Source: an uncultured Bdellovibrionales bacterium (GTDB lineage Bacteria; Patescibacteriota; Minisyncoccia; Moranbacterales; GWC2-37-73). Taken from it: a stretch of DNA of 64,000 bases. Under the pieces are notes generated by a model. That model did no database searches. It was not told where the DNA came from and was given only the letters and a program-made list of their open reading frames with translations. Each line of letters begins with the position of its first letter. Positions within the stretch are counted from its first letter, which is position 1. Position numbers and translations under genes: made by a program. The stretch lies in contig CAZAFB010000004.1 in assembly GCA_964484505.1 (NCBI GenBank), positions 23,265 through 87,264 of the forward strand. Direction: 5' to 3'. Positions 45,584-61,835 of the stretch are shown in pieces.

Positions 45584-45609
45584 GCAGCCTCGAGAGAGGC
45601 TGCTTTTTT
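45584..45609 (+). terminator. rho-independent terminator (GCAGCCTC-gaga-GAGGCTGC plus T6)
   Basis: Differs from the 44741 hairpin by one compensatory base-pair change. Confidence 0.8.
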
Positions 45610-46120: not shown

Positions 46121-46272
46121 CGGAAACGACCTTTCTCCTTCTTCATCCCAAGAGGAAGGAGGAGGTTGTTTCTGGCAGTGGTGATATAATGGAAATATGG
46201 CGGGATGATGGCATGCTGCGGATTATATTGCTATGCATTGTGTTAATGCAATAATATTTTAATGAAAAATGA

Positions 46273-46794
46273 ATGGAGAGATGTAGCGCCAAATTTATTA
46301 CTGTTTCCTTAATTGCCACACCCATGGTTTTGCTATGGGTGGAATCTGCGCAAGCGGTTTGTCCGGTTTGCACTATTGCTGTTGGGGCAGGGGTTGGTCT
46401 TTCCCGTTGGCTAGGAATTGACGATACAATAACCGGATTGTGGATAGGCGGACTTACGGTTTCGATGATAATGTGGACGTTGAATTGGTTGCAAAAGAAA
46501 AAGTATATTTTCAGGGGAAAAGAAATTTTGGTAAGTCTGGCATATTATGTATTCATAGTTGTTCCTTTATATCGAATGGAAATCATGGGCCATCCTTATA
46601 ATACGCTTTGGGGAGTGGATAAATTATTGCTCGGCATAATTATTGGCAGCACCTTTTTCTTTGTTGGTGGCGTTTGGTATTATTATCTCAAGAAGAAAAA
46701 TGACGGTCATACCTATTTTCCGTTTCAAAAAGTTGTGATGCCCGTGGCGCCGTTAGTGGTTCTAAGTGTTGTTTTTTATTTATTAACAAAATAA
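46273..46794 (+). CDS. hypothetical membrane protein
   Basis: Several TM helices. Confidence 0.4.
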   Translation: MERCSAKFITVSLIATPMVLLWVESAQAVCPVCTIAVGAGVGLSRWLGIDDTITGLWIGGLTVSMIMWTLNWLQKKKYIFRGKEILVSLAYYVFIVVPLYRMEIMGHPYNTLWGVDKLLLGIIIGSTFFFVGGVWYYYLKKKNDGHTYFPFQKVVMPVAPLVVLSVVFYLLTK

Positions 46795-46798
46795 GATA

Positions 46799-47365
46799 AT
46801 GGAAAACAAAATAAAAAATCTCAGTGAATTCGTGGAAAAAATCGATCAGATGAAAAAACAGGACAAGATGGACCTTTCTTCCGATCAAGATCTGAGCATT
46901 GCGATTATGAATCTTGTCAGTATTGAAGAACATTTTTTCTTTACGGCGGAAAAGACAGGCAAGGATGAATATCTCGACTTGCTTCAAGAAGTGCGAAAAA
47001 TGAGAGGGGAATTGCTTCGTAAGATAATTAAGGAATATGAGGGGGAGGTATGGTGTATTTCCAAACATCTTTTGGCAGCCTCGATGCGCTTGATGGAAGT
47101 GGGTACGAAGCAGCAGGGAATGGGTAATAAGGAACAGGCGAAAGAAATGTTTCAAAAGTCCTATGATTTGTATGGAATGTTTTGGGCGCTCAACATGAAA
47201 CTCATAAATTCCAATGATGTGAAAAAGGCAGGCGGGATTGAAATCGGGGAGGGGATCAAAAAGATTGATGAAAACGCACTCAACAGACATGATAAAAATC
47301 CGGAAGGGTTTACGGGGAAATTAAGAGATTTGGTTAGGAGGGCGATTGATTGTTGCATAGAGTAA
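46799..47365 (+). CDS. hypothetical protein
   Basis: ORF tightly following the previous gene. Confidence 0.4.
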   Translation: MENKIKNLSEFVEKIDQMKKQDKMDLSSDQDLSIAIMNLVSIEEHFFFTAEKTGKDEYLDLLQEVRKMRGELLRKIIKEYEGEVWCISKHLLAASMRLMEVGTKQQGMGNKEQAKEMFQKSYDLYGMFWALNMKLINSNDVKKAGGIEIGEGIKKIDENALNRHDKNPEGFTGKLRDLVRRAIDCCIE

Positions 47366-47393
47366 GGTTGAATTTTTCTTAAGTATTTTTTCT

Positions 47394-48482
47394 TTGGCTG
47401 TAGCGATATATTTTAAAAATAGCAATAATGAGATGAAAGAAAAAGTTGCCATATTATCATTGATTGTGAATGCCTTGCTTGCCGGAGGAAAGATTGCCGT
47501 CGGGTTGTTTTCCGGTTCCGCGGCTGTTTTGGCTGAAGGAGTCCATTCTTTTACAGATATATTTTCTTCAGCTATCGGTTATGTTGGTATCAGGACTTCC
47601 CAAAAGCCTGCCGATCGGCAGCATCCGTATGGTCACTATAAGTTTGAAGTTTTGTCCGGTGTTGTTATTACTATTATTCTTTTAGCGACGGGCCTTGGAA
47701 TTATCTACGATGCTTATCAAGAATTTCTGGATCCGAAGAAAATCAACGTAGGTTATCTGGCTTTCGGGGTAATGCTGTTTTCAGCGGTTATAAATGAAAT
47801 TATGGCCAGAATTAAAATTAGCATCGGCAAGGAGGAAAATTCAATAAGTCTTCTCTCGGACGGATTTCATTCCAGAATTGACGTGTTTTCTTCGCTGGCG
47901 GTTTTGGGAGGATTGTTTTTAGTCAGTTATTGGATTTATGCCGATTCGATTCTAGCATTGTTGGTTGGGATTTATATTATCAAAGAGTCATTTTCGTTGG
48001 GTAAAGAAGCAGTTGATTCCTTGCTTGATGTTTCAGCAGGAGATGAAATAGAAGAAGAAATAAAAAAGATTGCCAAAAGGGAAAATGTCGAATTGGCATC
48101 ACTCAAGACGCAGAAAAAAGGTTCGATAGTTACTGCGAATCTGGAAATACGTCTTCCAAGTGTTCTCAAGCTGGAAGAGGCTACCAAGATAGCCGACGCT
48201 TTGAAAGACAGGCTTGTTGGTGGCATAGAAAATTTGCAGTATGTGGTTATTCAGATAGTCAGCCATGATGTGGAAAGGAGTTTTTACAAGCCGACTTTCG
48301 GCAGAAGTTTTGGTTGGCAAAGAAGGGGAAGATTTGCAAAAGTAGATAAGAGTGCTGCTGGCTTGGGGCCTGACGGACATTGCGTTTGTCCTCAATGTGG
48401 TTATTCCATTAAACACAAGAGAGGTGTTCCCTGTTCGTCAATCAAGTGCTCCCATTGCAATATAAATTTAGAAAGAAAATAA
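47394..48482 (+). CDS. cation diffusion facilitator (CDF) transporter with a C-terminal Cys-rich Zn-ribbon tail
   Basis: HSFTDIFSS...HPYGHYKFE motifs; tail CVCPQCG...CSHC. Confidence 0.75.
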   Translation: MAVAIYFKNSNNEMKEKVAILSLIVNALLAGGKIAVGLFSGSAAVLAEGVHSFTDIFSSAIGYVGIRTSQKPADRQHPYGHYKFEVLSGVVITIILLATGLGIIYDAYQEFLDPKKINVGYLAFGVMLFSAVINEIMARIKISIGKEENSISLLSDGFHSRIDVFSSLAVLGGLFLVSYWIYADSILALLVGIYIIKESFSLGKEAVDSLLDVSAGDEIEEEIKKIAKRENVELASLKTQKKGSIVTANLEIRLPSVLKLEEATKIADALKDRLVGGIENLQYVVIQIVSHDVERSFYKPTFGRSFGWQRRGRFAKVDKSAAGLGPDGHCVCPQCGYSIKHKRGVPCSSIKCSHCNINLERK

Positions 48483-48483
48483 T

Positions 48484-48759
48484 ATGACCAGACCAAGAAT
48501 GTGCCGAAGATTAAGATTTCGACCGAAAGCCCACTATTTCAAACCGCAAGGAATTCCCATGAGTTTTCTGGAAGAAGTCTCACTTTCGCGCGAGGAACTG
48601 GAGGCGATCAAGCTCAAAGATTTTGACGGTCTCGAGCAAACAGAGGCGGCGGAAAAAATGCAAACTTCCCAAAGCACGTTTCAACGCATCCTATCTTCCG
48701 CGCACAAAAAAGTTGCGGAAGCAATCGTGAAAGGCAAGGCTCTTAGGATTGAGAATTAA
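48484..48759 (+). CDS. DUF134 (UPF0251) predicted DNA-binding protein
   Basis: MTRPRMCRRL...FKPQGIP...LEEVSLSREELEAIKLKDFDGLEQTEAAEKM matches the family pattern. Confidence 0.75.
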   Translation: MTRPRMCRRLRFRPKAHYFKPQGIPMSFLEEVSLSREELEAIKLKDFDGLEQTEAAEKMQTSQSTFQRILSSAHKKVAEAIVKGKALRIEN

Positions 48760-48768
48760 TCTAAATTT

Positions 48769-49278
48769 ATGGACATCTTTTCACATGGGCTGTGGGGTGG
48801 GGTGGCTTTTGGTCGCAAGAGTAAAAAGAATTTTTGGACTGCTTTTGCAATCGGCATGATGCCGGATCTTTTGGCTTTTGCTTTGCCTTTTGTTGGTCGC
48901 ATCTCAGGCGCTGCCGAGGGCCCGGCATATTCCAACGGTCATCCCGATGCCGCTTCGATTCCGCAATATGTCTATCACATCTATAATTTTTCCCATAGTC
49001 TAATAATATTCTTGGCCGTGTTTTTGATTGTTTGGGCAGTGCGCAAACAATCCCAGTGGCTTTTGGGCGCGTGGGGTCTGCATATCCTTGTCGACATTCC
49101 AACGCACAGCTCCAACTTTTTCCCCACGCCATTTCTTTGGCCGCTTTCCAGCTATCACGTCAACGGCATCCAATGGGGCACTCCGATCATTTTCATCCCC
49201 AACCTCATTCTCCTGGCCACGGCCTATTTAATCTGGGGCATATCCTACTGGCGCAAAAAAAGATTGAAAAATAAATAG
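48769..49278 (+). CDS. membrane-bound metal-dependent hydrolase-like protein (DUF457/YdjM-like)
   Basis: N-terminal SHGLWGG...MMPDLL, polytopic. Confidence 0.45.
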   Translation: MDIFSHGLWGGVAFGRKSKKNFWTAFAIGMMPDLLAFALPFVGRISGAAEGPAYSNGHPDAASIPQYVYHIYNFSHSLIIFLAVFLIVWAVRKQSQWLLGAWGLHILVDIPTHSSNFFPTPFLWPLSSYHVNGIQWGTPIIFIPNLILLATAYLIWGISYWRKKRLKNK

Positions 49279-49301
49279 TTTAATTTTTTTAATTTATCCA
49301 T

Positions 49302-49469
49302 ATGGAAAAAATTAAGGTTGAGCAACATGGGTTCACTATGTTTTCGTGGTTTGCGGGCTGGTTGTTTACGGTTGGGTTTTTGCATTTGTCACTGGGCACA
49401 GGAATTTTGGCGATTGTGCTTTGGCCGTATTATTTGGGCGTGGCTGTCAGTGCCATGATTGGACGCTAA
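49302..49469 (+). CDS. small membrane protein (55 aa; absent from the ORF track)
   Basis: ATG, two hydrophobic helices, terminator downstream at 49585. Confidence 0.3.
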   Translation: MEKIKVEQHGFTMFSWFAGWLFTVGFLHLSLGTGILAIVLWPYYLGVAVSAMIGR

Positions 49470-49584
49470 TTACTGACAACTTACTAAAAATCACTAACTA
49501 CTAACTGCTAACTACAAAATACACGAGTCTGTAGTTGATTAAGAGTAAGTAATATAAGTAATAGTTATACAAGATTTTATAAGC

Positions 49585-49616
49585 CAGCTAGGAATTTTTC
49601 CTTAGCTGGTTTTTGT
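49585..49616 (+). terminator. intrinsic terminator
   Basis: CCAGCTAGG / CCTTAGCTGG stem plus T5. Confidence 0.6.
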
Positions 49617-49753
49617 TTGGAAAAGTTATCCACAGGGGAGGGGGTTGCAGTGATAATGGGGAAGTGATAAAATATCATCAAGAACGCGCAGAGCGTTCAA
49701 TAACTAATAATTTGACCCAGGTGTTAACCCGATGACTTGGGTCACTAAAAAAG

Positions 49754-49981
49754 ATGGAAAGTGCAAACCAGGAGAAAGTATTCTCCAAAATGCTTCGCGC
49801 CGGAGGCAAAAATTATTTTTTCGACGTGAAGCGCGCCATTAATGGCAAGAACTATCTGACAATTGCTGAATCGTACAAAAATCAAAAAGGCGAACAAGTG
49901 AGCAACCGCATCATGATCTTCAAAGATCATGCTGACAGCTTCGCTGAAACATTGAAAGAAGTGGAAGGATATCTGAAATAG
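49754..49981 (+). CDS. PUR-alpha-like nucleic-acid-binding protein (DUF3276)
   Basis: SKMLRAGGKNYFFDVKRA..GKNYLTIAES PUR repeat signature. Confidence 0.6.
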   Translation: MESANQEKVFSKMLRAGGKNYFFDVKRAINGKNYLTIAESYKNQKGEQVSNRIMIFKDHADSFAETLKEVEGYLK

Positions 49982-50050
49982 GGCGATATATCCGCGGGCA
50001 GCTGGCCAGCACTTATTGACGCAGCTGCCCGGTAGATATAAAATACTCAT

Positions 50051-50398
50051 ATGAAAAATACTATGAAAAATTCAACAAAAAAATCAGGAGAAAAAACTTT
50101 TGGCTTCAATGAAGTGATGTCATTGCTTGAATCCATGAATGATGGGATTAAAGTAATTTCCGAACAATATGGGGGAGTTGTTGCGCGTTTGGATAAAATT
50201 GATGATAGATTGGATAGAATGGAGACAAGAATGGATGGGGTAGAAACTAGATTGGACAACGTGGAAGTTAAGCTGGATAAGCTGCAAGATGACATGGTGG
50301 AAGTCAAATATGAACTCAAAAATAAAGTTGACAGGGATGAGTTCAAAAAACTGGAAAAACGCGTCGTGAAATTGGAACGACTCTCTTACTCGCACTGA
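50051..50398 (+). CDS. coiled-coil hypothetical protein with internal RLD/VET repeats
   Basis: RLDKIDDRLDRMETRMDGVETRLDNVEVKLDKL. Confidence 0.45.
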   Translation: MKNTMKNSTKKSGEKTFGFNEVMSLLESMNDGIKVISEQYGGVVARLDKIDDRLDRMETRMDGVETRLDNVEVKLDKLQDDMVEVKYELKNKVDRDEFKKLEKRVVKLERLSYSH

Positions 50399-50413
50399 TC
50401 TGAAAATATCTCA

Positions 50414-50445
50414 AACACCGACTGAGTAGTCGGTGTTTGTTTAAG
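50414..50445 (+). terminator. rho-independent terminator
   Basis: AACACCGACT-gagt-AGTCGGTGTT perfect 10-bp stem plus T-rich tract. Confidence 0.75.
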
Positions 50446-50468
50446 ACAAAAAATAATCGTTAAATCTG

Positions 50469-52094
50469 ATGCCAAAAACATATTTGCAAAAACATTTTAA
50501 TTTTGCAGACTTTCGTCCCGGTCAGAGGGAAATTGTGGAAGCTATCGTCGCCGGAAAAGATGTGGTGGCTCTGATGCCGACAGGAGGCGGCAAATCTTTG
50601 TGCTACCAACTTCCTGCGATCATGAGCGGGAAACTTTCAATCGTGATTTCACCGCTCATTGCGCTCATGAAAGATCAGGTGGATGCCCTCAATGCGCGCG
50701 GAATCGGTGCGACATATGTGAACAGCACGCTTACAAACGAAGAAAGTGCCAGACGGATGGATGATATTCGCAGTGGTAAAACAAAAATTTTGTATATAGC
50801 TCCCGAGCGTTTTGGTAGTAATGAATTCAGAAAAGAATTTTCTCAAATGGATGTGCATATGGTGGCTGTCGATGAAGCGCATTGTGTGTCGCAATGGGGA
50901 CATGACTTTCGTCCGGATTATTTGAAAATAAAACAATATATAAATCTGTTGAAAAATCGCCCGCTTGTTGCTGCGTTTACCGCTACGGCGACGCCGGAAG
51001 TTAAAGATGATATTATCGAACGTTTGGGGTTAGAAAATCCGCAAGTTTTTATCAGAGGATTTGACCGTCCCAATCTCAAGTTTTTCGTGCAAAAAGATCT
51101 CAAACCCAGAGAAAGACAAGCTGAACTGCTACGCGTTATCAAATCTTTGGAAGGAAGCGGCGTGGTATATGTGCTAACCAGAAAGTATACCGAGGAAATC
51201 GCTGCCGCACTGAACCAGTCCGGAATTTCTGCAGTGGCATATCATGCAGGAATCGACGGAGAAAAACGCAACAAAATCCAAAATGATTTTATGGAAAATC
51301 GCTACAAAGTTATTGTGGCGACGATTGCGTTCGGTATGGGTGTGGACAAAGCCGACATCCGCTATGTCATCCATTCGGGCATGCCGGCAAGTCTGGAAGG
51401 GTATTATCAAGAAGCGGGAAGAGCTGGGCGCGACGGAGAAACGGCATATTGTATTTTGCTGCACAGTAAACGCGACAACGCAACCCACAACTTTCTGATC
51501 CAATCGACGCGTCGAGACATGCTTGCGCAAGGAAAGAGTTGGGATGAAGCGACAAAGATTATCGACATAAAATATGACAGACTGGATAAAATAAAGGAAT
51601 ATGTGCATGGCGGGAGATGCCGGCGCAAAATTATTCTCAAATATTTTGATGATCCGGCGCACAAAACAAGTAAAGAAAACTGCAGTGGCTGCGATGTGTG
51701 CATGGGATGGAAAAGAAAAAATGAAGGAGAGTCTGGCGATTATGAAAACAAAAGCAGAAGGCGCAGGGAAGGATTGAGCGGAACTGTTTTGGAAACAGCC
51801 GGATATTATCAGAAAGGATATGACGTTGCCAAAATTGCCAAAATTCGCGGCTTGGGACTCTCGACTATTTTCGGGCACCTGATCGATTGGTATGAAAATG
51901 GCGGCGATTTCGATATTGGGGCGCATTTTTCGCCGCAAGAAGAAAAAATTATTTTAGCCGCAATTCAAAAAGCAGACAATGCAAAATTTCTCAGCTCCAT
52001 TAAGCAGCAGTTGCCCGAGAATATCGGTTACGAAAAAATAAGGATGGTGGTGGCAAAAAAGAAAAGAGATATTAAACAAAAAATTGTCAATTAA
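50469..52094 (+). CDS. recQ: RecQ-family ATP-dependent DNA helicase
   Basis: FRPGQREIVEA, PTGGGKSLCYQLPA, DEAH, Zn-binding Cys cluster. Confidence 0.85.
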   Translation: MPKTYLQKHFNFADFRPGQREIVEAIVAGKDVVALMPTGGGKSLCYQLPAIMSGKLSIVISPLIALMKDQVDALNARGIGATYVNSTLTNEESARRMDDIRSGKTKILYIAPERFGSNEFRKEFSQMDVHMVAVDEAHCVSQWGHDFRPDYLKIKQYINLLKNRPLVAAFTATATPEVKDDIIERLGLENPQVFIRGFDRPNLKFFVQKDLKPRERQAELLRVIKSLEGSGVVYVLTRKYTEEIAAALNQSGISAVAYHAGIDGEKRNKIQNDFMENRYKVIVATIAFGMGVDKADIRYVIHSGMPASLEGYYQEAGRAGRDGETAYCILLHSKRDNATHNFLIQSTRRDMLAQGKSWDEATKIIDIKYDRLDKIKEYVHGGRCRRKIILKYFDDPAHKTSKENCSGCDVCMGWKRKNEGESGDYENKSRRRREGLSGTVLETAGYYQKGYDVAKIAKIRGLGLSTIFGHLIDWYENGGDFDIGAHFSPQEEKIILAAIQKADNAKFLSSIKQQLPENIGYEKIRMVVAKKKRDIKQKIVN

Positions 52095-52211
52095 AAAACA
52101 TACCTCAAATCGACGGCCGTGAGTTCGTGTATAGTTTTGGTTATGATGTGATGGTTTGGACCTTGTGATGAACATAAAGGGAAAATTAATAATATGGATG
52201 AGGCGCAGGCA

Positions 52212-52240
52212 TTGACTAAACGGGGCGGGTTTGCTAAATT
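52212..52240 (+). promoter_or_regulatory. sigma70 promoter module copy 1 (TTGACT, 17-nt spacer, TAAATT, then conserved leader GCCGTGTTGGTTCTTATACAAT)
   Basis: About 50 bp nearly identical to 53721-53786. Confidence 0.6.
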
Positions 52241-52284
52241 GCCGTGTTGGTTCTTATACAATTTGACAAGGAGGAATGCAAAAA

Positions 52285-52878
52285 ATGAGCGAGAAAATAG
52301 TCCAGCTTGAAGGGGAAATCAAGGGCCTCCACTACAATCCGGTAATGGAACGTCATAGTTTCTCGAATTCCAGGACGGAGGAATTCTACAAACAGTTCTG
52401 GGAAATTCACGTGAAACAGGTCATCGAATTCAGTAGGCAGATGGCTGTGAAATACGGCGCCGATCTGGAAGTTGTGTGGCTTGCGGCTATTCTGCATGAT
52501 ATCGCACGTCTTGATGATTATGAACCTCATGATGTAATTGGATCGGAAACAGCCTACATGTTGCTGATTGAAAAAGGTTTCAAATATTCTTTGGCTGAGA
52601 AAGCCAAGGTTGCCATCTTGAGACATCGTTGCAAAGAATATGTTCCTGAAACACTGGAACAGAAAATCATTGCCACGGCTGATGCGATGGCTCACTTCAT
52701 CCCGCCGTTCTATTTCTGGATAGCCAAATATTCAAACAAAAGCTTTGAGGAAGTTCTGGAAAAGAACAAGGGGAAAATCGAGCGCGATTACAATGATAAG
52801 ATCTTTTTCGAAGATGAGAGGGTGTTGGTTTCGGGGCAGTATGAAATGTTGAAAAGCTGGTTTGGATATAAAATTTAG
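52285..52878 (+). CDS. HD-domain phosphohydrolase
   Basis: H...AILHDIARLDD; SD AAGGAGG. Start taken at the second ATG for correct SD spacing. Confidence 0.6.
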   Translation: MSEKIVQLEGEIKGLHYNPVMERHSFSNSRTEEFYKQFWEIHVKQVIEFSRQMAVKYGADLEVVWLAAILHDIARLDDYEPHDVIGSETAYMLLIEKGFKYSLAEKAKVAILRHRCKEYVPETLEQKIIATADAMAHFIPPFYFWIAKYSNKSFEEVLEKNKGKIERDYNDKIFFEDERVLVSGQYEMLKSWFGYKI

Positions 52879-52899
52879 CAAAGAAAAAGGAGACAAATC

Positions 52900-53532
52900 A
52901 TGCCAGATACTCCGAATGTGTTAGCTGCCAGAAATGCTGTTTTTGAAGTGGGAAAGGCGCGTATGAATTTGCGTATAGCCCTTGCCAATCTTTCGCTTGG
53001 AGAACTTGCCGAAGTTATCACTGAAGTGCATGCTTACAGTCCCGTCGTTATCAATATCGATTCCCAAATCTATAAAAAGAAAGGCGGGCTGGCTATTTTA
53101 AAGCCATGCGAAGATCTTAACCTGGGTATCGTTCTATGGTCAGCTCCGAAATTAACAATGATGGCTTCTTGGGAAACAGTTCCTGATTCTATTTGCGTGG
53201 ACTTCATGAGAAACAAAGTTTTTTTTGAGGTCTTTTCCGGAGGCAAAGGCAAGAGTATGGATAAGAAATTCGCCTGCATAGCAGAAGCTTGCAAAAGAAA
53301 CGGAATAAGGAACATATTTCTTTTAAATCCGGGAAATATGTGTCAGTTTTTTCGAAATACGGGAAACTGTGATATTGAAGTCACGGGAGTGGATGATTTT
53401 TTGGATATACTGAGCATGCATGTTGACCTGGGAGATCTTAAGCTTTCCTTTCTTGATTTTCAAAAAAGTACAGCATTGGAATTCCATGAATATATGCGCA
53501 AATGTGGGATACGAGACGATCTGGGGGTGTAA
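52900..53532 (+). CDS. hypothetical protein (210 aa), SD-led
   Basis: AAAGGAGACAAATC-ATG; no family recognised. Confidence 0.45.
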   Translation: MPDTPNVLAARNAVFEVGKARMNLRIALANLSLGELAEVITEVHAYSPVVINIDSQIYKKKGGLAILKPCEDLNLGIVLWSAPKLTMMASWETVPDSICVDFMRNKVFFEVFSGGKGKSMDKKFACIAEACKRNGIRNIFLLNPGNMCQFFRNTGNCDIEVTGVDDFLDILSMHVDLGDLKLSFLDFQKSTALEFHEYMRKCGIRDDLGV

Positions 53533-53576
53533 AGCTTAATTTATCCTTTTGATAATGTCTGGACTTACTTGAACAA

Positions 53577-53611
53577 CGACCTGTTGCTTAAATAGCACGG
53601 GTCGTTTTTTT
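53577..53611 (+). terminator. intrinsic terminator module copy 1 (part of a ~75-bp repeated unit)
   Basis: CGACCT / GGGTCG stem, 16-nt loop, T7; downstream GTTTGGATTTTTGGCTGGCGAAAAATGGCTTGAATAA repeated at 55240. Confidence 0.7.
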
Positions 53612-53723
53612 GTTTGGATTTTTGGCTGGCGAAAAATGGCTTGAATAAAGGGAAGAATATGGTTATATTTAACTCGCGATCCCGTTAAATGTGGTCCATT
53701 AAGTAGTTAAATTTAACAGGGCA

Positions 53724-53752
53724 TTGACTAAGTGCGGCAAGTTTGCTAAATT
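53724..53752 (+). promoter_or_regulatory. sigma70 promoter module copy 2
   Basis: TTGACT, 17-nt spacer, TAAATT and identical leader. Confidence 0.6.
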
Positions 53753-53817
53753 GCCGTGTTGGTTCTTATACAATTAAACATATTGATGCTGTGGATTTTG
53801 AGAGGAGGTGATAAAAG

Positions 53818-55179
53818 GTGATCAAGGGCATAAAAGCCGTAGTCGAAAGGGTTGTTTTAGATGGCCCGCATGGTCCATTTGTCATTACAACCTCAAAGGC
53901 GTTCACTGGCTCCGTGACGTTCTCCCTTGAACGTAACGTGTGGCAGGAACATGGGCACCCTGAACCTGGAGAAGTAGTTTTTCTTTACGAGCTTCGGGAA
54001 AAAAGACAGGGATGGAGAGCAAAAAAAGGACGGTACTGGAAACCGTCTGACGAGCAAACAGCACAGGAGGAAGAAATCATGGAAAGACTGATGTTTTCAC
54101 TCAAGAGACTTAGAAGCAAGTGGTTCCCCACGGAAGAAGACATGAAATGGAAAAGCTGGGTAGACTTCAAGTCCAGAGAAACAAGGGACTTGGTTAATCT
54201 TCTTTCCCAGAAGGTAAACGACATTTTCAAGAAACGAGCGCTATTTCTGCTGTTTGTACCTTCGGCAACAGTTAATCCTCTCTATTGGAAAGGAGACATC
54301 GGTAAGTTCTATCACGGGTTGGACATTCTCGACAAACTGACTCCTGATCTGCTGAGCTATGCAGCTGAGCTTGTCATGCAGTTTGTCACCGCTCTGAGTC
54401 CGGTGCACTGCGATCGGCCGAGGAACGTTGCCGAAGGCGGTGGTGGTATCATGATATATATGTCGATACCTGACAAATATCATGACGCGCTGTCGTTCTA
54501 CAACCGCTGTATACTGAAACTGTTGGCAAAGCTCCCTGCTGAGCAAGCAGAAAAGATCTTTCCGCTGTATTCCCTCAATGACATCTCAACATTCTGGAAT
54601 ATGGATACCGCCTCAGGATACAACCCTTTTCAGAACCTCATGTACTCCGATGACATCAACGAGAAATGGAAGAGGTTGGCTGACGGGAAGATGCGAGATA
54701 TAGTGCGCGCGGAAATTGAAGGAAAAGTAAAACCCAGAGAAGAGCATGAAGACGCTCTGCGCTGCTACTCCAGTTTTATTCAGAGGCAGTTCTATGGGTC
54801 CCATTACCCGAAGAAGTTGCTTGTCGAACAGGTGCAATTCCTCGTGGAAAACCTTCAACCGAATACACACCTCATCAACTGCTTCAATGTCATCAATTTC
54901 TTCGACCTTTTGTATGCAGATTCCCAAAAGGAACTTCGGCACAAAATCGCCAGATATACCGTCATGGAAAACATGGAGAAATACGGAAGGTTTCATGTTT
55001 ACGACACGGGAACGAGGCGGGCTGCAGAACAGATGCTCGAAGAGTTCGCTGATGATCAGGAACTTGCTGAAAAAGTTCGCGAACTTATAGCAGAAGGCGA
55101 AAGAAGACAGGCTGAAAACGCAGCTCATTATGCAGAAGAGAAAGAAGCGGAGAAAAGCATCCTTGCTGCAATGCAGTAA
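53818..55179 (+). CDS. hypothetical protein (453 aa), GTG start, SD-led, elevated GC
   Basis: GAGGAGGTGA SD; no family recognised; local GC visibly higher than the surroundings. Confidence 0.5.
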   Translation: MIKGIKAVVERVVLDGPHGPFVITTSKAFTGSVTFSLERNVWQEHGHPEPGEVVFLYELREKRQGWRAKKGRYWKPSDEQTAQEEEIMERLMFSLKRLRSKWFPTEEDMKWKSWVDFKSRETRDLVNLLSQKVNDIFKKRALFLLFVPSATVNPLYWKGDIGKFYHGLDILDKLTPDLLSYAAELVMQFVTALSPVHCDRPRNVAEGGGGIMIYMSIPDKYHDALSFYNRCILKLLAKLPAEQAEKIFPLYSLNDISTFWNMDTASGYNPFQNLMYSDDINEKWKRLADGKMRDIVRAEIEGKVKPREEHEDALRCYSSFIQRQFYGSHYPKKLLVEQVQFLVENLQPNTHLINCFNVINFFDLLYADSQKELRHKIARYTVMENMEKYGRFHVYDTGTRRAAEQMLEEFADDQELAEKVRELIAEGERRQAENAAHYAEEKEAEKSILAAMQ

Positions 55180-55204
55180 GGCGTGAAATCTCAAGCAGCA
55201 AGAG

Positions 55205-55239
55205 CGACCCGTTGCTTAAATAGCGTGGGTCGTTTTTTT
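55205..55239 (+). terminator. intrinsic terminator module copy 2
   Basis: CGACCC / GGGTCG perfect stem plus T7; same flanking sequence as copy 1. Confidence 0.75.
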
Positions 55240-55302
55240 GTTTGGATTTTTGGCTGGCGAAAAATGGCTTGAATAATGGGAAAATAGGTGTCGGGGCGAC
55301 TC

Positions 55303-55330
55303 TTGACATATTTTTTTATTCGTGTAAAAT
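55303..55330 (+). promoter_or_regulatory. sigma70 promoter for tuf (TTGACA, 16-nt spacer, TAAAAT)
   Basis: Direct reading of the sequence. Confidence 0.55.
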
Positions 55331-55484
55331 GGCTTATGTATCTTAATTTCCTGCAAAGGAATTTTTGAATTTGCGAAAAAAAGCAGATTCGAATATAATA
55401 AAAAGAAGCTGTTTTTGTAATCAATTATCTTAAATGTTCGCAAGTCGCAGACAAAAGGTTTGTGCGGCAGGCGAAAAAACAACT

Positions 55485-56678
55485 ATGGCAGCAGAACAAT
55501 TCGTACGCAGCAAACCACACGTCAATGTGGGAACCATCGGACATGTTGACCACGGAAAGACCACTCTTACCGCGGCTATTTTGCATGGTCTGAGTCTCAA
55601 AGGTTTGGCCAAGGAAAAGAATGTCAATGAAATCGACAACGCACCGGAAGAAAGAGAGCGCGGAATCACCATTGCTACTTCCCACTGCGAATACGAATCA
55701 GACACTCGTCACTATGCACACGTAGACTGTCCAGGTCATGCTGACTATATCAAAAACATGATCACTGGTGCTGCTCAGATGGATGGTGCTATCCTCGTGG
55801 TTAGCGCAACTGACGGTCCTATGCCTCAGACTCGCGAGCACATCTTGCTTGCAAAGCAGGTCGGTGTTCCTTCAATCGTTGTTTTCATCAACAAAGTTGA
55901 CATGGTTGATGATCCTGAACTTATCGACTTGGTTGAAGCTGAAGTTCGCGAACTGCTTTCCAAATATGAATTCGACGGTGACAATGCCAAGGTTGTTCGC
56001 GGATCTGCCGTGAAAGCTTTGGAAGCTGGCAGCGCTGATGATGAAAGCGTAAAGTGTATCTATGAACTTATCGCAGGGTTGGATGAACAAATTCCTGAAC
56101 CTGTTCGTGAAGTTGACAAGCCGTTTTTGATGCCTATTGAAGATATTTTCTCAATCGAAGGTCGCGGAACCGTGGTTACTGGACGCATTGAACGCGGAAT
56201 AATCAACATCAACGAAGAGGTGGAAATCGTGGGACTTAAACCTACCACCAAAACCGTAGTTACCGGAATTGAAATGTTCAACAAGTCTCTTGACAAAGGA
56301 CAAGCTGGTGACAACGCAGGACTTTTGCTTCGCGGTGTTAAGAAAGAAGATGTTGAACGCGGTCAGGTTCTTGCTAAACCGGGTTCAATCACTCCTCATA
56401 CTGAATTTGAAGGGCAGATCTATATTTTGACCAAAGAGGAAGGTGGACGTCACACCCCATTCTTCAAAGGATACAAACCACAGTTCTACATCCGTACAAC
56501 CGATGTTACCGGTGAGGTTTTTCTTCCGGAAGGAACTGAAATGGTTATGCCTGGAGACACCATTAATTTGAACATCAAATTGATTGCTCCGGTTGCTATG
56601 GAAGATGGAATGCGCTTCGCTATCCGCGAAGGAGGACGTACAGTTGGTGCAGGTGCCGTAACTAAGATTATCAAATAG
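55485..56678 (+). CDS. tuf: elongation factor Tu
   Basis: [26 protein letters not shown]. Start set at [16 protein letters not shown] rather than the track's 55434. Confidence 0.95.
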
Positions 56679-56775
56679 TTTCAGTTTACTATGCAAGCAT
56701 GCTCCAAGCGTGCTTGCTTGTGTTCACTGAATCACTAGATAAGTTAATTAAATTTCATTTATAATTTAGACAGCG

Positions 56776-57105
56776 ATGGCAGCTAAAAAACCAGAAACAA
56801 CATCGACGAGAATCAGGATTAAGATCAAAGCATATGACAATAAAGTCATTGATCAATCCGCAAGAAAGATCGTTGAAACTGCGGAACGCAGCGGAGCGAA
56901 AATAACCGGTCCGGTGCCGCTTCCTACGGAAATTCATAAAGTGACGGTGAACAAGTCAACTTTTGTGCATAAGGATGCTCGTGAGCAATATGAGATGCGC
57001 GTACACAAGCGTTTGATCGATATCACTGATCCTAGCGCAAAGACGATTGAAAACCTGACTAGCTTGGATTTGCCAGCAGGTGTTGACGTGGAAATCAAGA
57101 TGTGA
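56776..57105 (+). CDS. rpsJ: 30S ribosomal protein S10
   Basis: IRIKIKAYD...GPVPLPT signature. Confidence 0.9.
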
Positions 57106-57283
57106 TAATATTAATCACGGATCGACGCGAATTAAGTCCCGAATATTCTCGAATGGCATGTATGGGTTTATTAGAGATTGTTAGAGATAAATTTGTGTAG
57201 ATTAGAGATTTATATCACTGGTTAAAGTCCTGTCGCTTGCGAGTAACGGGATACTCAACTAGCCAAACGCGAAATTTTTCGCG

Positions 57284-57309
57284 GGTCTGGCTGCAGGGCC
57301 AGATTTTTT
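57284..57309 (+). terminator. intrinsic terminator between rpsJ and rplC
   Basis: TCTGGC-tgcagg-GCCAGA plus T6; preceded by the palindrome CGCGAAATTTTTCGCG (57268-57283). Confidence 0.6.
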
Positions 57310-57370
57310 ATACCCTACGAATTACGAATCAGTTACGAATTTACAAATTACGAATAATTGAAATAAGACG

Positions 57371-57934
57371 ATGAGCAAATTTATTTTAGGTAAGAAAATA
57401 GGAATGACTACCATCTATGATGGGGAGAAAGGAGCTTTGAATGTGACTCTCATTTCATGCGAGCCCAACAAAGTATCTTGCGTCCGTAGCACTGAAAAAG
57501 ATGGTTATGCGGCGATGCAGTTGGAGCTTTCTAAGACTAAAAATAAAACTCATCGCAAAGAGTTCCGTATTGAGGAATCTGAAGCGAAGAATGCTGGTGA
57601 TTTGGTAACGATTGAAGCGTTTGCGATTGGAGATAAAGTAAAGGTTTCAGGAATAACCAAAGCTAAAGGTTTCCAAGGTGTTGTGAAAAGACATGGTTTC
57701 AAGGGAGCTCCCAAAACACATGGTCACAAACATGACCTTCGTGCTCCTGGTTCGATCGGAGCCCAGCAGCCTCAGCATGTTATCAAAGGAAAGAGAATGG
57801 CCGGAAGAATGGGAGGAACTCGCAGCTCAGTAAAGAATCTCAAGATTGCATATTTGGATATTGAAAAGAATATTATCGGAGTGCAAGGTGCGGTTCCGGG
57901 AGTAGCAGGGAGAATCGTAGAGATCTGTGGATAG
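57371..57934 (+). CDS. rplC: 50S ribosomal protein L3
   Basis: L3 family sequence. Confidence 0.9.
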   Translation: MSKFILGKKIGMTTIYDGEKGALNVTLISCEPNKVSCVRSTEKDGYAAMQLELSKTKNKTHRKEFRIEESEAKNAGDLVTIEAFAIGDKVKVSGITKAKGFQGVVKRHGFKGAPKTHGHKHDLRAPGSIGAQQPQHVIKGKRMAGRMGGTRSSVKNLKIAYLDIEKNIIGVQGAVPGVAGRIVEICG

Positions 57935-57937
57935 AAA

Positions 57938-58040
57938 TCGCGAATCGACACGAATATAGTCTCGAATAATCGCGAATGAAATGCGTCATTAGAGATTATT
58001 AGTGATAAATTAGAGTAAATTAGAGATTTATACCATCATT
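57938..58040 (+). repeat. intergenic phased-repeat element: CGAAT x4 (57941, 57951, 57963, 57973) then TTAG(A/T)G(A/T)T x4 (57989, 57999, 58010, 58020), ending TTTATACCATCATT-ATG
   Basis: Unit spacing 10-12 bp; same architecture recurs in at least 10 other spacers. Confidence 0.85.
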
Positions 58041-58670
58041 ATGGCTAAGGTAACCGTCTACAATACAACAGGAAAGAAAGTGGAGGATATGGAATTGTCC
58101 GATAATGTTTTTGGACAAAAATCCAACAACGATCTGCTTCATCAAGTATATGTTGCTATTTCAGCAAATCGTCGCCAAGTGCTTGCGCACACCAAAGGAG
58201 TTGGCGAGCGCGCCGGATCGGGCAAAAAGCCTTGGAGACAGAAAGGAACTGGCAATGCCCGCGTAGGACAAAAAAGAAATCCGATTTGGCGTGGAGGTGG
58301 AATTTCCATGGGACCGACAAGTGACAGGAATTTCAGCAAGGATGTAAACAAAAAAATGCGTCAAAAGGCTGTCATGGTTGCGCTTAGTGAAAAAGTGCGC
58401 AGTGGTAATCTGATTGTGGTAGATAAGCTGATACTGAATGAGAAGAAGACCAAGGAATTTGCGCAGGTTCTCAAGAATCTTAAAGTTTCTGGAAAAGTTT
58501 TGGTTGCTTTCGAAGAAACTGAAAGAGAACTCATGAAGGCATCACGTAATATTGAAACGGTAAAGAATATCAGTACGAAAAATTTGAATGTTTTCGATAT
58601 GCTTAATTCCAAGAATATCTTGGTAAGCCTTGCGTCAGTAAAGTTATTAGAAGAGAAGTTTGCTAAATAA
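58041..58670 (+). CDS. rplD: 50S ribosomal protein L4
   Basis: L4 family sequence. Confidence 0.9.
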   Translation: MAKVTVYNTTGKKVEDMELSDNVFGQKSNNDLLHQVYVAISANRRQVLAHTKGVGERAGSGKKPWRQKGTGNARVGQKRNPIWRGGGISMGPTSDRNFSKDVNKKMRQKAVMVALSEKVRSGNLIVVDKLILNEKKTKEFAQVLKNLKVSGKVLVAFEETERELMKASRNIETVKNISTKNLNVFDMLNSKNILVSLASVKLLEEKFAK

Positions 58671-58702
58671 AGATTTCCTGATAATTTCAAGATATAATAG
58701 TT

Positions 58703-59050
58703 ATGGCTCCAAAAGTTGAAAAATCCAAAAAGAAGAAAGATGCCGCGGAGGCTTTTCAGAGCGCTGAGGTTGCGTATCGTGTTCTTGTTGAACCGTGGAT
58801 AACCGAAAAAACTCATGCTGGATCGGCAATAGGCAAATATTCTTTCAAGGTAACTTCCAAAGCTACCAAGAAAGAAGTTGCCGAGGCTATTGCAGGAATG
58901 TATGGAATTACCGTTACGGGAGTAAATATGATTACGGTAAAGAAGAAAAAGAAAAGCTATGGCAGATATGAAGGAGCTAAGGCTGGATATAAAAAGGCTA
59001 CAGTGACTCTGAAGGAAGGAGAATCAATAACATTTTTTGAAGGAGTGTAG
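58703..59050 (+). CDS. rplW: 50S ribosomal protein L23
   Basis: L23 family sequence. Confidence 0.85.
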   Translation: MAPKVEKSKKKKDAAEAFQSAEVAYRVLVEPWITEKTHAGSAIGKYSFKVTSKATKKEVAEAIAGMYGITVTGVNMITVKKKKKSYGRYEGAKAGYKKATVTLKEGESITFFEGV

Positions 59051-59158
59051 GGATTTAAATCGCGAATCGACACGAATTAGTCTCGAATAATCGCGAATAG
59101 AATGCAAAATTAGAGATTATTAGAGATAAATTAGCGTAAATTAGAGATTTATACCATT
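59051..59158 (+). repeat. intergenic phased-repeat element
   Basis: AATCGCGAATCGACACGAATTAGTCTCGAATAATCGCGAAT then ATTAGAGATTATTAGAGATAAATTAGCGTAAATTAGAGATTTATACC. Confidence 0.85.
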
Positions 59159-59992
59159 ATGGCGATTAAAGTATACAAACGAAATACTGCTGGACGAAGG
59201 AACATGTCCATTGTAAAAGCTGATGAGCTTACGGATAAGAAGCCTGAGAAAGCTTTGCTTTCCAAGCTCACCAAAAAATCCGGTCGCAGCAACGGAAAGA
59301 TTTCCGTGCGTCATCATGGAGGTGGGCATAAGCGTCGTTATCGTGCGGTTGATTTTCGCCAGGACAAATTTGATATACCGGGCAAGATTGAGGCTATCGA
59401 AAGAGATCCGAATCGCAGCTCGTTGATTGCTTTGGTTGTTTACCGCGATGGAGAGAAAAGATATGTTTTGGCGTCGGCAGGAATGAAAGCTGGCGTGGAA
59501 ATAATTGCTGGACCGAATGTACCAATCAAAGAAGGAAACAGGACTGAGCTTAAGAATATTCCTGTAGGAACGATTGTTTCCAATGTCGAAGTTACCTTTG
59601 GCAAGGGTGGACAGATCGTACGTAGTGCCGGAAGCGGAGCAATGCTTATGGCTGTTGATGAAAAGATGGCACAGCTAAAAATGCCATCCGGAGAAATTAG
59701 GCTAGTGAAATGCATTTGTTATGCTACAATTGGACAGGTGAGCAATTTTGAACATAACGCAGAAAAGCTCGGAAAGGCTGGTAGAAACAGATGGAAAGGT
59801 GTACGCCCGGGAGTGAGGGGAAGTGCGATGAATCCGGTTGATCATCCACATGGAGGAGGAGAAGGACGTCAGCCGATTGGTTTGAAATATCCAAAAACTC
59901 CTTGGGGCAAACCTGCCCTTGGCAAGAAAACCCGCAAGAAGTCGAAATATAGTGATAAATTTATTGTTAAGAGGAGAACTAAAAAGAAATAA
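59159..59992 (+). CDS. rplB: 50S ribosomal protein L2
   Basis: L2 family sequence. Confidence 0.95.
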   Translation: MAIKVYKRNTAGRRNMSIVKADELTDKKPEKALLSKLTKKSGRSNGKISVRHHGGGHKRRYRAVDFRQDKFDIPGKIEAIERDPNRSSLIALVVYRDGEKRYVLASAGMKAGVEIIAGPNVPIKEGNRTELKNIPVGTIVSNVEVTFGKGGQIVRSAGSGAMLMAVDEKMAQLKMPSGEIRLVKCICYATIGQVSNFEHNAEKLGKAGRNRWKGVRPGVRGSAMNPVDHPHGGGEGRQPIGLKYPKTPWGKPALGKKTRKKSKYSDKFIVKRRTKKK

Positions 59993-60085
59993 CAGAATTA
60001 ACATAGAAGAAAACAGAATAGCACAGATACACAGAATTTTTCTGTGTCGTTCCGTAAATTTCTGTGTAGTTCTGTGATAGTAATT
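59992..60085 (+). repeat. dyad repeat array: ACAGAAT direct repeats followed by TTCTGTG inverted copies, with a perfect 8-bp palindrome ACACAGAA-ttt-TTCTGTGT at 60029-60047
   Basis: Direct reading; differs from the common spacer element. Confidence 0.8.
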
Positions 60086-60430
60086 ATGGCTAGGAGTCTG
60101 AAAAAAGGACCATACGTGGACGAAAGAGTTATCAAGAAGGTTGTTGATAGCAAGCCGGGTGAAAAGACCATCAAAACATGGTCACGCGCCTGTACTATCA
60201 CTCCGGAAATGATCGGCTTTACTTTCGGTGTGCATAATGGGAAAGAATTTATTTCTGTATATGTCACTGAAGAAATGGTCGGTCATCGTTTGGGAGAATT
60301 TTCTCCTACGCGCAAATTCTTGAGACACGGAGGTAAGATGCAGAAAGAAATTGAACAGGCAGCCAAGCAAAAATCTTTGGATGCAGCGAAAGCAGCCAAA
60401 GCTGACACAGGAAAGGGAAAAAAGAAATAA
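60086..60430 (+). CDS. rpsS: 30S ribosomal protein S19 with a Lys/Ala-rich C-terminal extension
   Basis: [12 protein letters not shown]...GHRLGEF signature. Start at 60086, not the track's 60044. Confidence 0.9.
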
Positions 60431-60508
60431 GGATTTAAATCGCGAATCGAATGCAAGAATTAGAGATTATTAGGGATAAATTAGCGTAAATTAGAGATTT
60501 ATACCATT
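60431..60508 (+). repeat. intergenic phased-repeat element (shortened module A)
   Basis: AATCGCGAATCGAATGC then TTAGAGAT-type array. Confidence 0.8.
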
Positions 60509-61084
60509 ATGAAAGTTAACGCAACACTGAAAAATTTGAGAATATCTCCGCGCAAAGTGCGCTTAGTGGCTGATTCTATCAAGGGAATGAATGCTTCTGC
60601 TGCTATTGCTCATGTCCACAAGACAATAAAGCGTTCAAGCGATGACATTGAAAAACTCATCCGCAGCGCGGTGGCTAATGCGGAAAATAATTTTGGTTTG
60701 GATGGTGACAACATGTACATCTCGGATATTCAGGTTGGCGAAGGGCCAAGCATGAAACGTTGGTTGCCCAGAGCTCACGGAAGAGCAACTTCGCTCATTA
60801 AGCGTACCTCGCATGTGTATCTGGAGCTTGATGAAAGGGAAGAAGGTAAAAACCGCAAGTCGTCTGAGCAACTCCAGAAAGAGAAAGAAGAAAGAGCAAA
60901 AGCCAAGGCTGAAGCCATCAAGGAATTGGAAGAGGAAATGAAAGCCGCGGAGGAATCCGAAGATGAAGTGCATGATGAAAAGGAATTGAAAGAGCAGAAA
61001 GTGAAAAAGGAAACTGCAAAGACAGAACAGAAGGGTCAAGACAAAGGATGGAAGGGCAAGATATTTCAGCGCAAATCCGTGTAA
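60509..61084 (+). CDS. rplV: 50S ribosomal protein L22 with an ~80-aa Lys/Glu-rich C-terminal extension
   Basis: L22 core followed by a low-complexity K/E tail. Confidence 0.9.
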   Translation: MKVNATLKNLRISPRKVRLVADSIKGMNASAAIAHVHKTIKRSSDDIEKLIRSAVANAENNFGLDGDNMYISDIQVGEGPSMKRWLPRAHGRATSLIKRTSHVYLELDEREEGKNRKSSEQLQKEKEERAKAKAEAIKELEEEMKAAEESEDEVHDEKELKEQKVKKETAKTEQKGQDKGWKGKIFQRKSV

Positions 61085-61181
61085 ATAATTCACGAATCGA
61101 CACGAATTTGTTCTCGAATAATCACGAATTTATTAGAGATAATTAGCGATAAATTAGTGTAAATTAGCGATTTATAAAATT
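61085..61181 (+). repeat. intergenic phased-repeat element
   Basis: CACGAATCGACACGAAT...CTCGAATAATCACGAAT then TTAGAGAT/TTAGCGAT/TTAGTGTA/TTAGCGAT. Confidence 0.8.
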
Positions 61182-61835
61182 ATGGGACATAAGGTAAATC
61201 CAACAGGACTCAGAATTGGAATCACGACGACTTGGAAGTCGCGCTGGTTTTCCGATAAGGATTATGCAAAAAAGTTGCGCGAAGACACGCTAATCCGCCA
61301 AGCTATAGCGAAGAAGTGGAAAAATGCAGCGATTGCTGATGTGGAAGTGGAACGTAGTGCCAATACGATTAAATTGATCATCAAGACATCCCGTCCAGGC
61401 GTACTCATAGGTCGCGGAGGAACGGGAATTGAAGATATTTCCGCTTTCGTCAAGAAGAATTTTTTCGCCAATCGAAAAGTTGATCTGAAAATTGAAGCGC
61501 AGGAAGTGAAACAATTCGAAGAAAATGCCTCGTTGGTAGCCCAAAATGTTGCCGAGCAGTTGGAAAAGCGTATGCCTTTCCGCAGAGTGCTCAAATCAAC
61601 CCTGGACCAAGTGGAAAAAAATAGGAATGTGAAAGGTGTGAAGATTGAGGTTTCTGGACGTTTGGGAGGAGCGGAAATGTCTCGAAGAGAATGGTTATCT
61701 CGCGGCACGGTGCCTCTGCACACATTGCGTGCCGACATTGATTTCTCGAAAGCGACCGCGTTTACCACATATGGAGCTATCGGAGTGAAAGTTTGGATAT
61801 ATAAAGGAGAAGTATTTGATGATAAAAATCTCTAA
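61182..61835 (+). CDS. rpsC: 30S ribosomal protein S3
   Basis: MGHKVNPTGLRIG signature. Confidence 0.95.
   Translation: MGHKVNPTGLRIGITTTWKSRWFSDKDYAKKLREDTLIRQAIAKKWKNAAIADVEVERSANTIKLIIKTSRPGVLIGRGGTGIEDISAFVKKNFFANRKVDLKIEAQEVKQFEENASLVAQNVAEQLEKRMPFRRVLKSTLDQVEKNRNVKGVKIEVSGRLGGAEMSRREWLSRGTVPLHTLRADIDFSKATAFTTYGAIGVKVWIYKGEVFDDKNL

Follow-up and report, generated by a model that had tools for sequence, protein, structure and literature searches.

Predicted Promoter and Terminator Blocks Duplicated Within a Strain-Variable Segment Between recQ and tuf of a Candidate Phyla Radiation Bacterium

A stretch of 64,000 nucleotides (nt) of contig CAZAFB010000004.1 (assembly GCA_964484505.1), hereafter the window, was analyzed for the segment that separates recQ from tuf; all coordinates are positions in this 64-kb window, and loci fetched from other strains or genomes carry L-numbers. 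The open reading frame (ORF) listing and a reading of positions 52000-55500 gave the gene order recQ, a gene for an HD-domain protein (the HD gene), genes for proteins of 210 and 453 amino acids (aa; the 210-aa and 453-aa genes), and tuf. We consider it probable that the three genes form a small accessory islet in a strain-variable recQ-tuf slot of a Parcubacteria-type member of the candidate phyla radiation (CPR), arranged as two transcription units with copied expression signals. The evidence consists of two pairs of repeats and their homologies elsewhere, a sister strain in which the segment differs, and a contrast in Shine-Dalgarno (SD) use between these genes and their neighbors. The features are listed in Table 1.

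Results

Duplicated Promoter and Terminator Blocks

The repeat search revealed two blocks, each present twice. The first, P, is 61 nt long with 89% identity between the copies and stands ahead of the HD gene (P1) and of the 453-aa gene (P2). In the promoter scan both copies showed TTGACT, a 17-nt spacer and TAAATT, with TG ahead of the -10, and a 32-nt core over the -10 and the leader was 100% identical. Near-consensus hexamers with a spacing in the 16-18 nt range and a gene downstream make P a predicted promoter of the sigma-70 type. The second block, T, is 83 nt long with 93% identity and follows the 210-aa gene (T1) and the 453-aa gene (T2), with a fully identical 42-nt tail. Its GC-rich hairpin (CGAYCYGTTGCTTAAATAG...GGGTCG) lies past the stop codon and is followed by seven T, as in an intrinsic terminator; the fold energies were -19.7 kcal/mol for T1 (z -3.84 vs shuffles) and -28.3 kcal/mol for T2 (z -5.3), and termination is predicted at both. 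The 32-nt core of P and the 42-nt core of T each occur exactly twice in the window even at 3 mismatches, and not at all in shuffles. Among 112 fetched CPR loci, P and T were absent except in the same species, in the L006/L018 terminator, and in a variant leader in L010.

These results bear out the duplicated promoter block that the original prediction had described from the letters of this segment. The duplicated terminator was confirmed as well, while the "compensatory" stem changes ascribed to it were not. In an alignment of four homologous hairpins (the two in the window, one in L104, and one in L006), 94% of the stem cells were paired and 5 of the 13 stem pairs varied, in each case on one side only and with wobble pairing kept; two-sided changes numbered 0. 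The view that a canonical sigma-70 promoter is atypical here has to be dropped, as tuf has one of its own.

The nearest HD homologue with context, in L010, is 77% identical in amino acids and 78% in nucleotides. It is preceded by CATTGACTAA, with the same -35 as P1, then a 17-nt spacer, TG-n-TAGATT, GTTCTTACACAA, TGACAAGGAGGAA and 10 nt to the ATG, so that its SD and spacing are also those of the window HD gene. The leader/SD stretch of L010 aligned to P1 with a score of 39, which was reached by 0 of 500 shuffles. Because a 77%-identical homologue has the same layout, P can be taken as the native promoter and leader of the HD gene. The 453-aa homologues in L006, L007, and L019, on the other hand, have different promoters and a well-conserved 5' region ending in AAAGGAGGTGAGAAAAG. 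In the window 453-aa gene this SD region of the family is retained, with a P copy in place of what precedes it elsewhere, the P1-P2 match stopping right past TTATACAATT. The simplest reading is that P2 would be a copy of the HD promoter put ahead of the 453-aa gene.

For T the homologies point the other way. Over 36 nt, the T2 hairpin shares 92% identity with L006 9892-9927 and L018 7928-7963, where the counterpart closes an operon of a 453-aa homologue (85-86% identical to that of the window) and a 174-aa gene. The HD operon of L010 ends in an unrelated hairpin. Because a matching terminator ends the 453-aa operon in its closest relatives, L006 and L018, T is most simply read as native to the 453-aa family, and T1 as its putative copy behind the HD unit. 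The cassette duplication proposed originally therefore stands in so far as expression signals were duplicated locally, but only a promoter and a terminator were copied, each apparently native to a different gene.

A few further candidates were rejected. A third, degenerate T copy after recQ (52095-52207) was not significant, its score being reached by 36 and 74 of 500 shuffles, and a similarity of 75% over 24 nt between the tuf promoter and the tail of T was treated as chance. An RNA element at the locus was also rejected, since Rfam gave nothing in 51900-55600 and the leaders folded no better than shuffles.

Comparison with Sister Strain L104

Locus L104 (JGI 3300015615) was recovered by look-up of the window S10 protein. 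Its positions 1-7777 are 99.5% identical to window 44314-52089 on the left flank, and 8386-17220 are 98.6% identical to window 55202-64000 on the right. Along the window, identity is 99.6% up to about 51590, 93.4% over 51590-52089, 82-88% inside the promoter-cargo-terminator segment, and 96-99% from 55283 on, with the last ~500 nt of recQ forming part of the divergent, recombined zone. The recQ-tuf gap of L104 is only ~0.9 kb. It contains a P block 87% identical to P1, HD-type SD included, an HD remnant of ~60 nt from the 3' end (82%), whose start codons are destroyed, an SD-led ORF of 132 aa that is unrelated and without Pfam family, and one T block (about 88%), which is followed by a spacer identical to the post-T2 spacer, a palindrome, and the tuf promoter. 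The 210-aa and 453-aa genes are absent.

Because identity drops in the recQ 3' end and recovers right past T, the whole promoter-cargo-terminator segment appears to have a history different from that of its flanks, with putative crossovers within the recQ 3' end and just past T. From the remnant in L104, the HD gene would have stood at this site for some time and yet can be dispensed with, and the genes for the 210-aa and 453-aa proteins are probably accessory. An identical arrangement was found in three strains, L002-L004. Thus, the presence or absence among close strains by which genomic islands are recognized was observed between L104 on one side and the window with L002-L004 on the other. 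As to whether the recQ-tuf junction is normally empty in relatives, a check proposed with the original prediction, L002-L004 have the same genes and L104 has different cargo.

The cargo had further been taken as horizontally acquired and as lying inside a conserved fusA-tuf junction. The segment is acquired or variable, as L104 differs at the site, and it stands directly upstream of tuf; however, the fusA-to-tuf interval already measures ~10.8 kb and holds ~14 genes in the source organism, no mobility gene (integrase, transposase, or recombinase family) was found among the called genes from fusA to tuf, and the higher GC content of the 453-aa gene, as discussed below, is probably no local mark of import.

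Shine-Dalgarno Sequences

The energies of the SD:anti-SD duplexes were computed against the canonical 16S tail, the host's own 16S lying outside the window. At the first start codon, a duplex of -7 kcal/mol or lower was found for ~5 of the 69 window ORFs, three of which are the HD, 210-aa, and 453-aa genes. The other strong SDs belong to a CHAP-domain gene at 38378 (-11.1 kcal/mol) and to the minus-strand ORF 30741-31196 (-10.7 kcal/mol). The claim that a strong SD is atypical for this neighborhood thus holds for all three genes, whose translation would proceed via SD pairing, unlike that of nearly all neighbors. The SD region of the 453-aa gene is a shared feature of its homologues, as AAAGGAGGTGA is kept upstream of those in L006, L007, L019, and L021 and AAAGGAGGTGG in L008. 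Most HD homologues elsewhere are without an SD, and several look leaderless. In Parcubacteria, the anti-SD motif is present in just 48% of 16S genes (PMC9297842).

In the rest of the window, further clear SDs precede the DUF5320 gene (45866-46120) and the minus-strand ORF 31379-31774, which is without Pfam family; the CHAP gene mentioned above spans 38378-39331. The tuf gene is without an SD. Several window genes look leaderless, for instance the one at ATG 50051, 6 nt before which a -10 TAAAAT ends.

Proteins Encoded in the Segment

The HD protein matched PF01966 with 41.6 bits (cut-off 22; E 1.8e-10) and TIGR00277 (HDIG) with 30.3 bits (cut-off 27.6). Its start is most likely ATG 52285, giving 197 aa; ATG 52276 would give 200 aa. 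The family comprises 111 homologues of ~198 aa, 34-100% identical (mostly 49-79%), and is widespread in CPR. In an alignment of 34 members H42, H71-D72, H82, H114, D133, and H137 were invariant. The best PDB match was 2pq7, an uncharacterized "predicted HD superfamily hydrolase". No NCBIfam equivalog was found, with RNase Y, YqeK, Cas3'' and others far under cut-off. Elsewhere the gene occurs in varied, mostly housekeeping contexts. A conserved partner gene was rejected, as the 25 downstream neighbors represent 21 unrelated groups (NUDIX, a second HD, alpha/beta hydrolase, ASCH, SET, and GDSL among others). The protein is probably a nucleotide phosphohydrolase, as suggested by its family membership and, weakly, by small-enzyme neighbors such as NUDIX.

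Neither the 210-aa nor the 453-aa protein belongs to a family in Pfam, NCBIfam, PHROGs, or PADLOC, so that the HD domain is, as predicted, the only recognizable one. A HMMER search of 1.84 billion representatives returned a single true homologue of the 210-aa protein, P0196, which is 55% identical from end to end and is encoded behind a non-HD gene on a contig of 1.2 kb. The 210-aa gene is real but very rare. Its AlphaFold2 model was unusable (predicted local distance difference test score 43), and a profile search of PDB gave nothing usable. Kinship to the genes that follow HD or 453-aa homologues elsewhere (257 aa, HD-like 200 aa, 174 aa, and 132 aa) was rejected, as no similarity was found.

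The 453-aa protein has 82 homologues, none with a Pfam domain. They are solitary genes in varied contexts and of patchy occurrence. In architecture, an all-helical core of ~365 aa follows a beta-rich N-terminal module of ~81-87 aa (53818-54078), which has a basic linker and is optional. The model had no significant fold match in PDB or BFVD, a sequence profile search of PDB was null, and Pfam scans of 64 aligned members yielded sub-threshold noise. The N-module also heads an unrelated family of ~490 aa (hhalign probability 99.9%, over 81 columns only). We infer a helical scaffold-like protein, in which the basic beta-module could bind nucleic acid.

Some observations concern the module boundary. 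The second family with the N-module comprises P0074-P0082 (e.g., P0075 of 497 aa), in which the module is ~60% identical and the C-terminal region is unrelated and without Pfam domain. Within the 453-aa gene an internal SD, CAGGAGGAAGAAATC (54061-54081), and ATG 54079 lie exactly at the boundary of N-module and core. Short-form homologues of 364-367 aa begin at that boundary, and the Met is conserved in full-length members; either internal initiation or a past gene fusion could account for ATG 54079. In L017, a 98-aa ORF before a short-form homologue was considered as a separate N-module and rejected; it had no BLASTP support, and its DNA resembles a truncated N-module.

The original prediction had suggested a defense or toxin-like module. 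PADLOC returned no trusted match: the HD protein had a weak Cas3-HD hit (E 0.0026, 15.9 bits) well under the trusted level, and the 210-aa and 453-aa proteins had none. No cas or partner genes lie nearby, and the three genes are never neighbors in the other genomes examined. Across CPR the HD family is highly conserved, and beside it lie small enzymes (NUDIX, second HD, hydrolases) or housekeeping genes. Searches of IMG/VR and of INPHARED phages gave no relative of the 210-aa or the 453-aa protein; for the latter, PLSDB plasmids gave none either, and its model had no match in BFVD. The suggestion thus went unsupported.

Composition and Codon Usage

The window has a GC content of 41.8%, and its genes a mean of 42.5 ± 3.2%. 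The 453-aa gene reaches 46.8% (52% at third codon positions), compared with 42.6% for the HD gene and 41.1% for the 210-aa gene. Thus, the description of the segment as a higher-GC three-gene island fits the 453-aa gene but not the other two, and tuf (46.3%) and fusA (47.1%) are as high. When codon-usage deviation was ranked over 55 genes, tuf came first (z 11.1) and the 453-aa gene second (z 7.8), while the HD gene (z 2.4) and the 210-aa gene (z 1.4) were ordinary. In its deviation the 453-aa gene partly follows tuf (r 0.51), via C-ending two-fold codons and CAG, and departs from it in Arg and Leu codons. In 8 of 9 other loci, the homologue of the 453-aa gene has a higher GC content than the DNA around it. 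Because these loci show the excess too, it is best regarded as a putative family trait and not as a local mark of recent import.

Locus Layout

The HD and 210-aa genes are predicted to be co-transcribed. Downstream, the promoter scan gave a second candidate promoter for tuf at 55371-55399, and the most likely tuf start is ATG 55485 rather than 55434, the start of the longest ORF. The sole tRNA of the window is at 33769, so none stands at the segment border. By exact-protein look-ups the locus was found on contigs from JGI metagenomes of groundwater type and in Logan assemblies, with homologues named Parcubacteria, Moranbacteria, and Pacebacteria.

Table 1. Features of the recQ-tuf segment and its borders. 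Promoters, terminators, and SD sequences are predictions.
Feature	Position	Strand	Remarks
recQ (541 aa)	50469..52094	+	Left core flank; Pfam DEAD, Helicase_C, RecQ_Zn_bind, HTH_40
P1 promoter/leader block	52208..52268	+	-35 TTGACT 52212-52217; -10 TAAATT 52235-52240; leader GCCGTGTTGGTTCTTATACAAT
SD AAGGAGGA of HD gene	52268..52275	+	10 nt ahead of ATG 52285; duplex -11.4 kcal/mol
HD-domain phosphohydrolase gene (197 aa)	52285..52878	+	PF01966, TIGR00277
SD AAAGGAGA of 210-aa gene	52886..52893	+	SD:anti-SD duplex -8.7 kcal/mol
210-aa gene, near-orphan	52900..53532	+	21-nt gap after HD gene
T1 terminator block	53572..53654	+	Hairpin about 53577-53604; T-run 53605-53611; 42-nt tail
Decayed palindromic element CCCGTTAAAT...ATTTAACAGGG	53681..53721	+	Directly before -35 of P2; single copy in window
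P2 promoter/leader block	53720..53780	+	-35 53724-53729; -10 53747-53752; precedes 453-aa gene
Extended 10-nt SD AGGAGGTGAT of 453-aa gene	53803..53812	+	Duplex -19.3 kcal/mol, strongest in window
453-aa gene, GTG start	53818..55179	+	Unannotated Parcubacteria-type family
T2 terminator block	55200..55282	+	Hairpin about 55205-55232, then T-run
tuf promoter TTGACA, 16 nt, TAAAAT	55303..55330	+	Promoter scan; right core flank

Another strain-variable stretch lies inside the fusA-tuf interval, from fusA to ydjM (window about 44700-48760). There, L002 and L103 compared with L004 and L106 have two different gene sets, one per strain group: one group has genes for proteins of 262 aa, DUF5320, 173 aa, and 188 aa, a cation-efflux gene, and DUF134, and the other has 74 aa, 42 aa, 123 aa, His_Phos_1, and 46 aa.

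Discussion

In the arrangement that we favor, the first unit would run from a sigma-70 promoter with a TG-extended -10 through the leader, the SD-led HD gene, and the SD-led 210-aa orphan to an end at T1. The second would comprise a P copy with the first ~25 nt of the leader, joined to the extended SD of the 453-aa family, then the 453-aa gene and T2. Local duplication or recombination would have brought a copy of the HD-native promoter to the second unit and a copy of the terminator of the 453-aa family to the first. The joint of T1, palindrome, TTGAC, and P2 may be the novel joint of a tandem duplication that ended in two -35 TTGAC motifs, one in the HD promoter and one in that of tuf. Both units would be under the same promoter and initial transcribed sequence and would probably be co-regulated, with no read-through into tuf. 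Finally, strains would exchange the whole segment through homologous recombination between the core sequences on either side of it. As a separate observation, L104 has at 8485-8530, within its tuf promoter region, a perfect 41-nt palindrome, CCCGTTAAATATGGTCCGCCAGAAGGCGGAATTTAACGGGG (DNA fold z -7.7), flanked by TTGAC direct repeats of which the 3' repeat is the tuf -35; the element at window 53681-53721 is a decayed copy of this palindrome.

While the repeats with their homologies, the polymorphism among strains, and the contrast in SD use are observations, the order of duplication, the co-regulation, and the protein functions would follow from them only by inference. Several points weigh against this reconstruction. 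The activity of P as promoter and of T as terminator is predicted from sequence only, and both blocks may have more copies outside the window; the P leader had no match in genome_contigs or metagenome_contigs, collections that evidently do not include this organism. T1 and T2 are the same in the tail yet differ at 5 hairpin positions. The spacers past T1 and T2 differ strongly, the palindrome follows T1 only, and no intermediates were found. The atypical codon usage of the 453-aa gene (z 7.8) also fits recent import.

Another explanation, which we hold to be unlikely yet worth weighing, is that P and T are the standard portable expression modules of the lineage, with cargo swapped by recombination within them as in a plug-in slot or cassette array. 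In its favor, three cargo sets stand between P and T in one species (HD gene with 210-aa gene; 453-aa gene; HD remnant with 132-aa ORF in L104). In addition, the -35, -10, and leader are near-invariant in the three P copies while a 10-nt spacer core differs in all three, and an SD is brought by every cargo gene. However, there are just two copies per block in 64 kb and none in the other fetched loci, the breakpoints in L104 are outside P and T (recQ 3' end; past T), and P appears to be the ancestral promoter of the HD gene. The lack of a recombinase gene between fusA and tuf, noted above, also argues against cassette swapping.

More speculative, and rather improbable when its parts are taken jointly, is a reading in two linked parts. 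P with its leader and T would be a reusable frame for SD-dependent accessory genes, whose cargo strains exchange, in a genome where translation otherwise starts without an SD. The 453-aa family, which is patchy in occurrence, GC-rich at 8 of 9 loci, and shares its N-module with another family, would be a strongly expressed protein of new fold that spreads horizontally, with its own promoter, 10-nt SD, and own terminator, and with a role in, e.g., defense or host interaction.

There is little chance that the segment holds ordinary, vertically inherited housekeeping genes with the repeats as the usual promoter and terminator of the organism. The HD family is indeed widespread in CPR, the HD and 210-aa genes are ordinary in GC content and codon usage, and L002-L004 share one arrangement. 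Against this, L104 has an HD remnant only and neither of the other two genes, which largely refutes the explanation; moreover, the closest relatives hold 453-aa and HD homologues at other sites, the blocks stand beside no other gene of the window, and the other window genes are generally without an SD. Least probable of all is a horizontally acquired defense or toxin module with an HD nuclease as effector acting with the 210-aa and 453-aa proteins, for although the segment is strain-variable, two of its three proteins are without known family, the 453-aa gene is codon-atypical and patchily distributed, and the HD protein has its faint Cas3-HD resemblance, the PADLOC results, the gene neighborhoods, the phage and plasmid searches, and the lack of mobility genes described above all speak against it.

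Returning to the islet of two units, the locus appears to give a base-pair view of how a reduced CPR genome rewires accessory genes, with copied signals yielding two insulated units before a highly expressed core operon. It also provides a contrast, with strong SDs in a few accessory genes and none in core genes, in a phylum where about half of the lineages are reportedly without the anti-SD motif. In addition, two uncharacterized proteins are highlighted, one from a family of ~80 members without significant fold match in PDB or BFVD and the other a near-orphan.

Other Observations in the Window

A family of intergenic repeats was noted at 12023, 18654, 41785, 57108, 57933, 59078, 60414, 61085, 61824, 62342, and 62868, each repeat being ~65-110 nt long and ending at a start codon. 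The repeats stand immediately ahead of many genes, among them nearly every gene of the S10 ribosomal-protein operon. This operon is normally tightly packed. The 5' half of the repeat is built of 4-5 units of (N)CGAAT and the 3' half of ~4 units of ATTAG(N)G, followed by GATTTATA(C/A)CATTATG. The repeats are also present in L104. Since their RNA folded no better than shuffles (z 0 to -1.9), the repeats seem more likely to act at the DNA level, for instance as a protein-binding array.

An 88-aa ORF (24005-24271, plus strand) lies between nrdD (21524-23806) and the gene for a radical-SAM activase (24494-25195). Its C-terminal half duplicates the C-terminal part of NrdD (TEVYSRVVGYIRPV.QWNKGKRTEFGDRKEF), with a DNA repeat of 98 nt that is 80% identical (23630-23727 and 24146-24243), and Cys pairs in its N-terminal half are reminiscent of a zinc ribbon. 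The ORF may be a stand-alone copy of the C-terminal region of NrdD, the location of the glycyl-radical site.

Comparison with Known Systems

We regard the segment as a further case of a familiar type of feature, the swappable genomic islet; its three genes do not make up a conserved system, and nothing here demonstrates a new kind of system. As in strain-variable islets between core genes, near-identical core flanks (recQ and tuf) enclose an interior that is replaced or divergent, identity falls at the edges, and a second variable stretch (fusA-ydjM) is near. Unlike such islets, it is very small (3.1 kb vs 0.6 kb), is without an integrase, tRNA, or insertion-sequence hallmark, and is built of two units with shared, copied expression signals. 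Integron cassette arrays resemble it in their successive units of variable cargo, each followed by a similar imperfect palindrome. However, no integrase is nearby, each unit has its own predicted promoter, and the 3' repeat is a GC-hairpin with T-run, as in a terminator.

The HD protein shares with the HD hydrolases (PF01966/HDIG; PDB 2pq7) the H...HD...H...D metal-binding motif and a single domain of ~200 aa, whereas it matches generic models only, and its family has a C-terminal KIFFEDEK...LKxWF segment. Regarding translation, nearly all window genes are without an SD, in coherence with SD-poor regimes (Bacteroidetes-like, and some Parcubacteria; PMC9297842), and in contrast to such regimes strong SDs are retained by a few accessory genes, with one SD extended to 10 nt.

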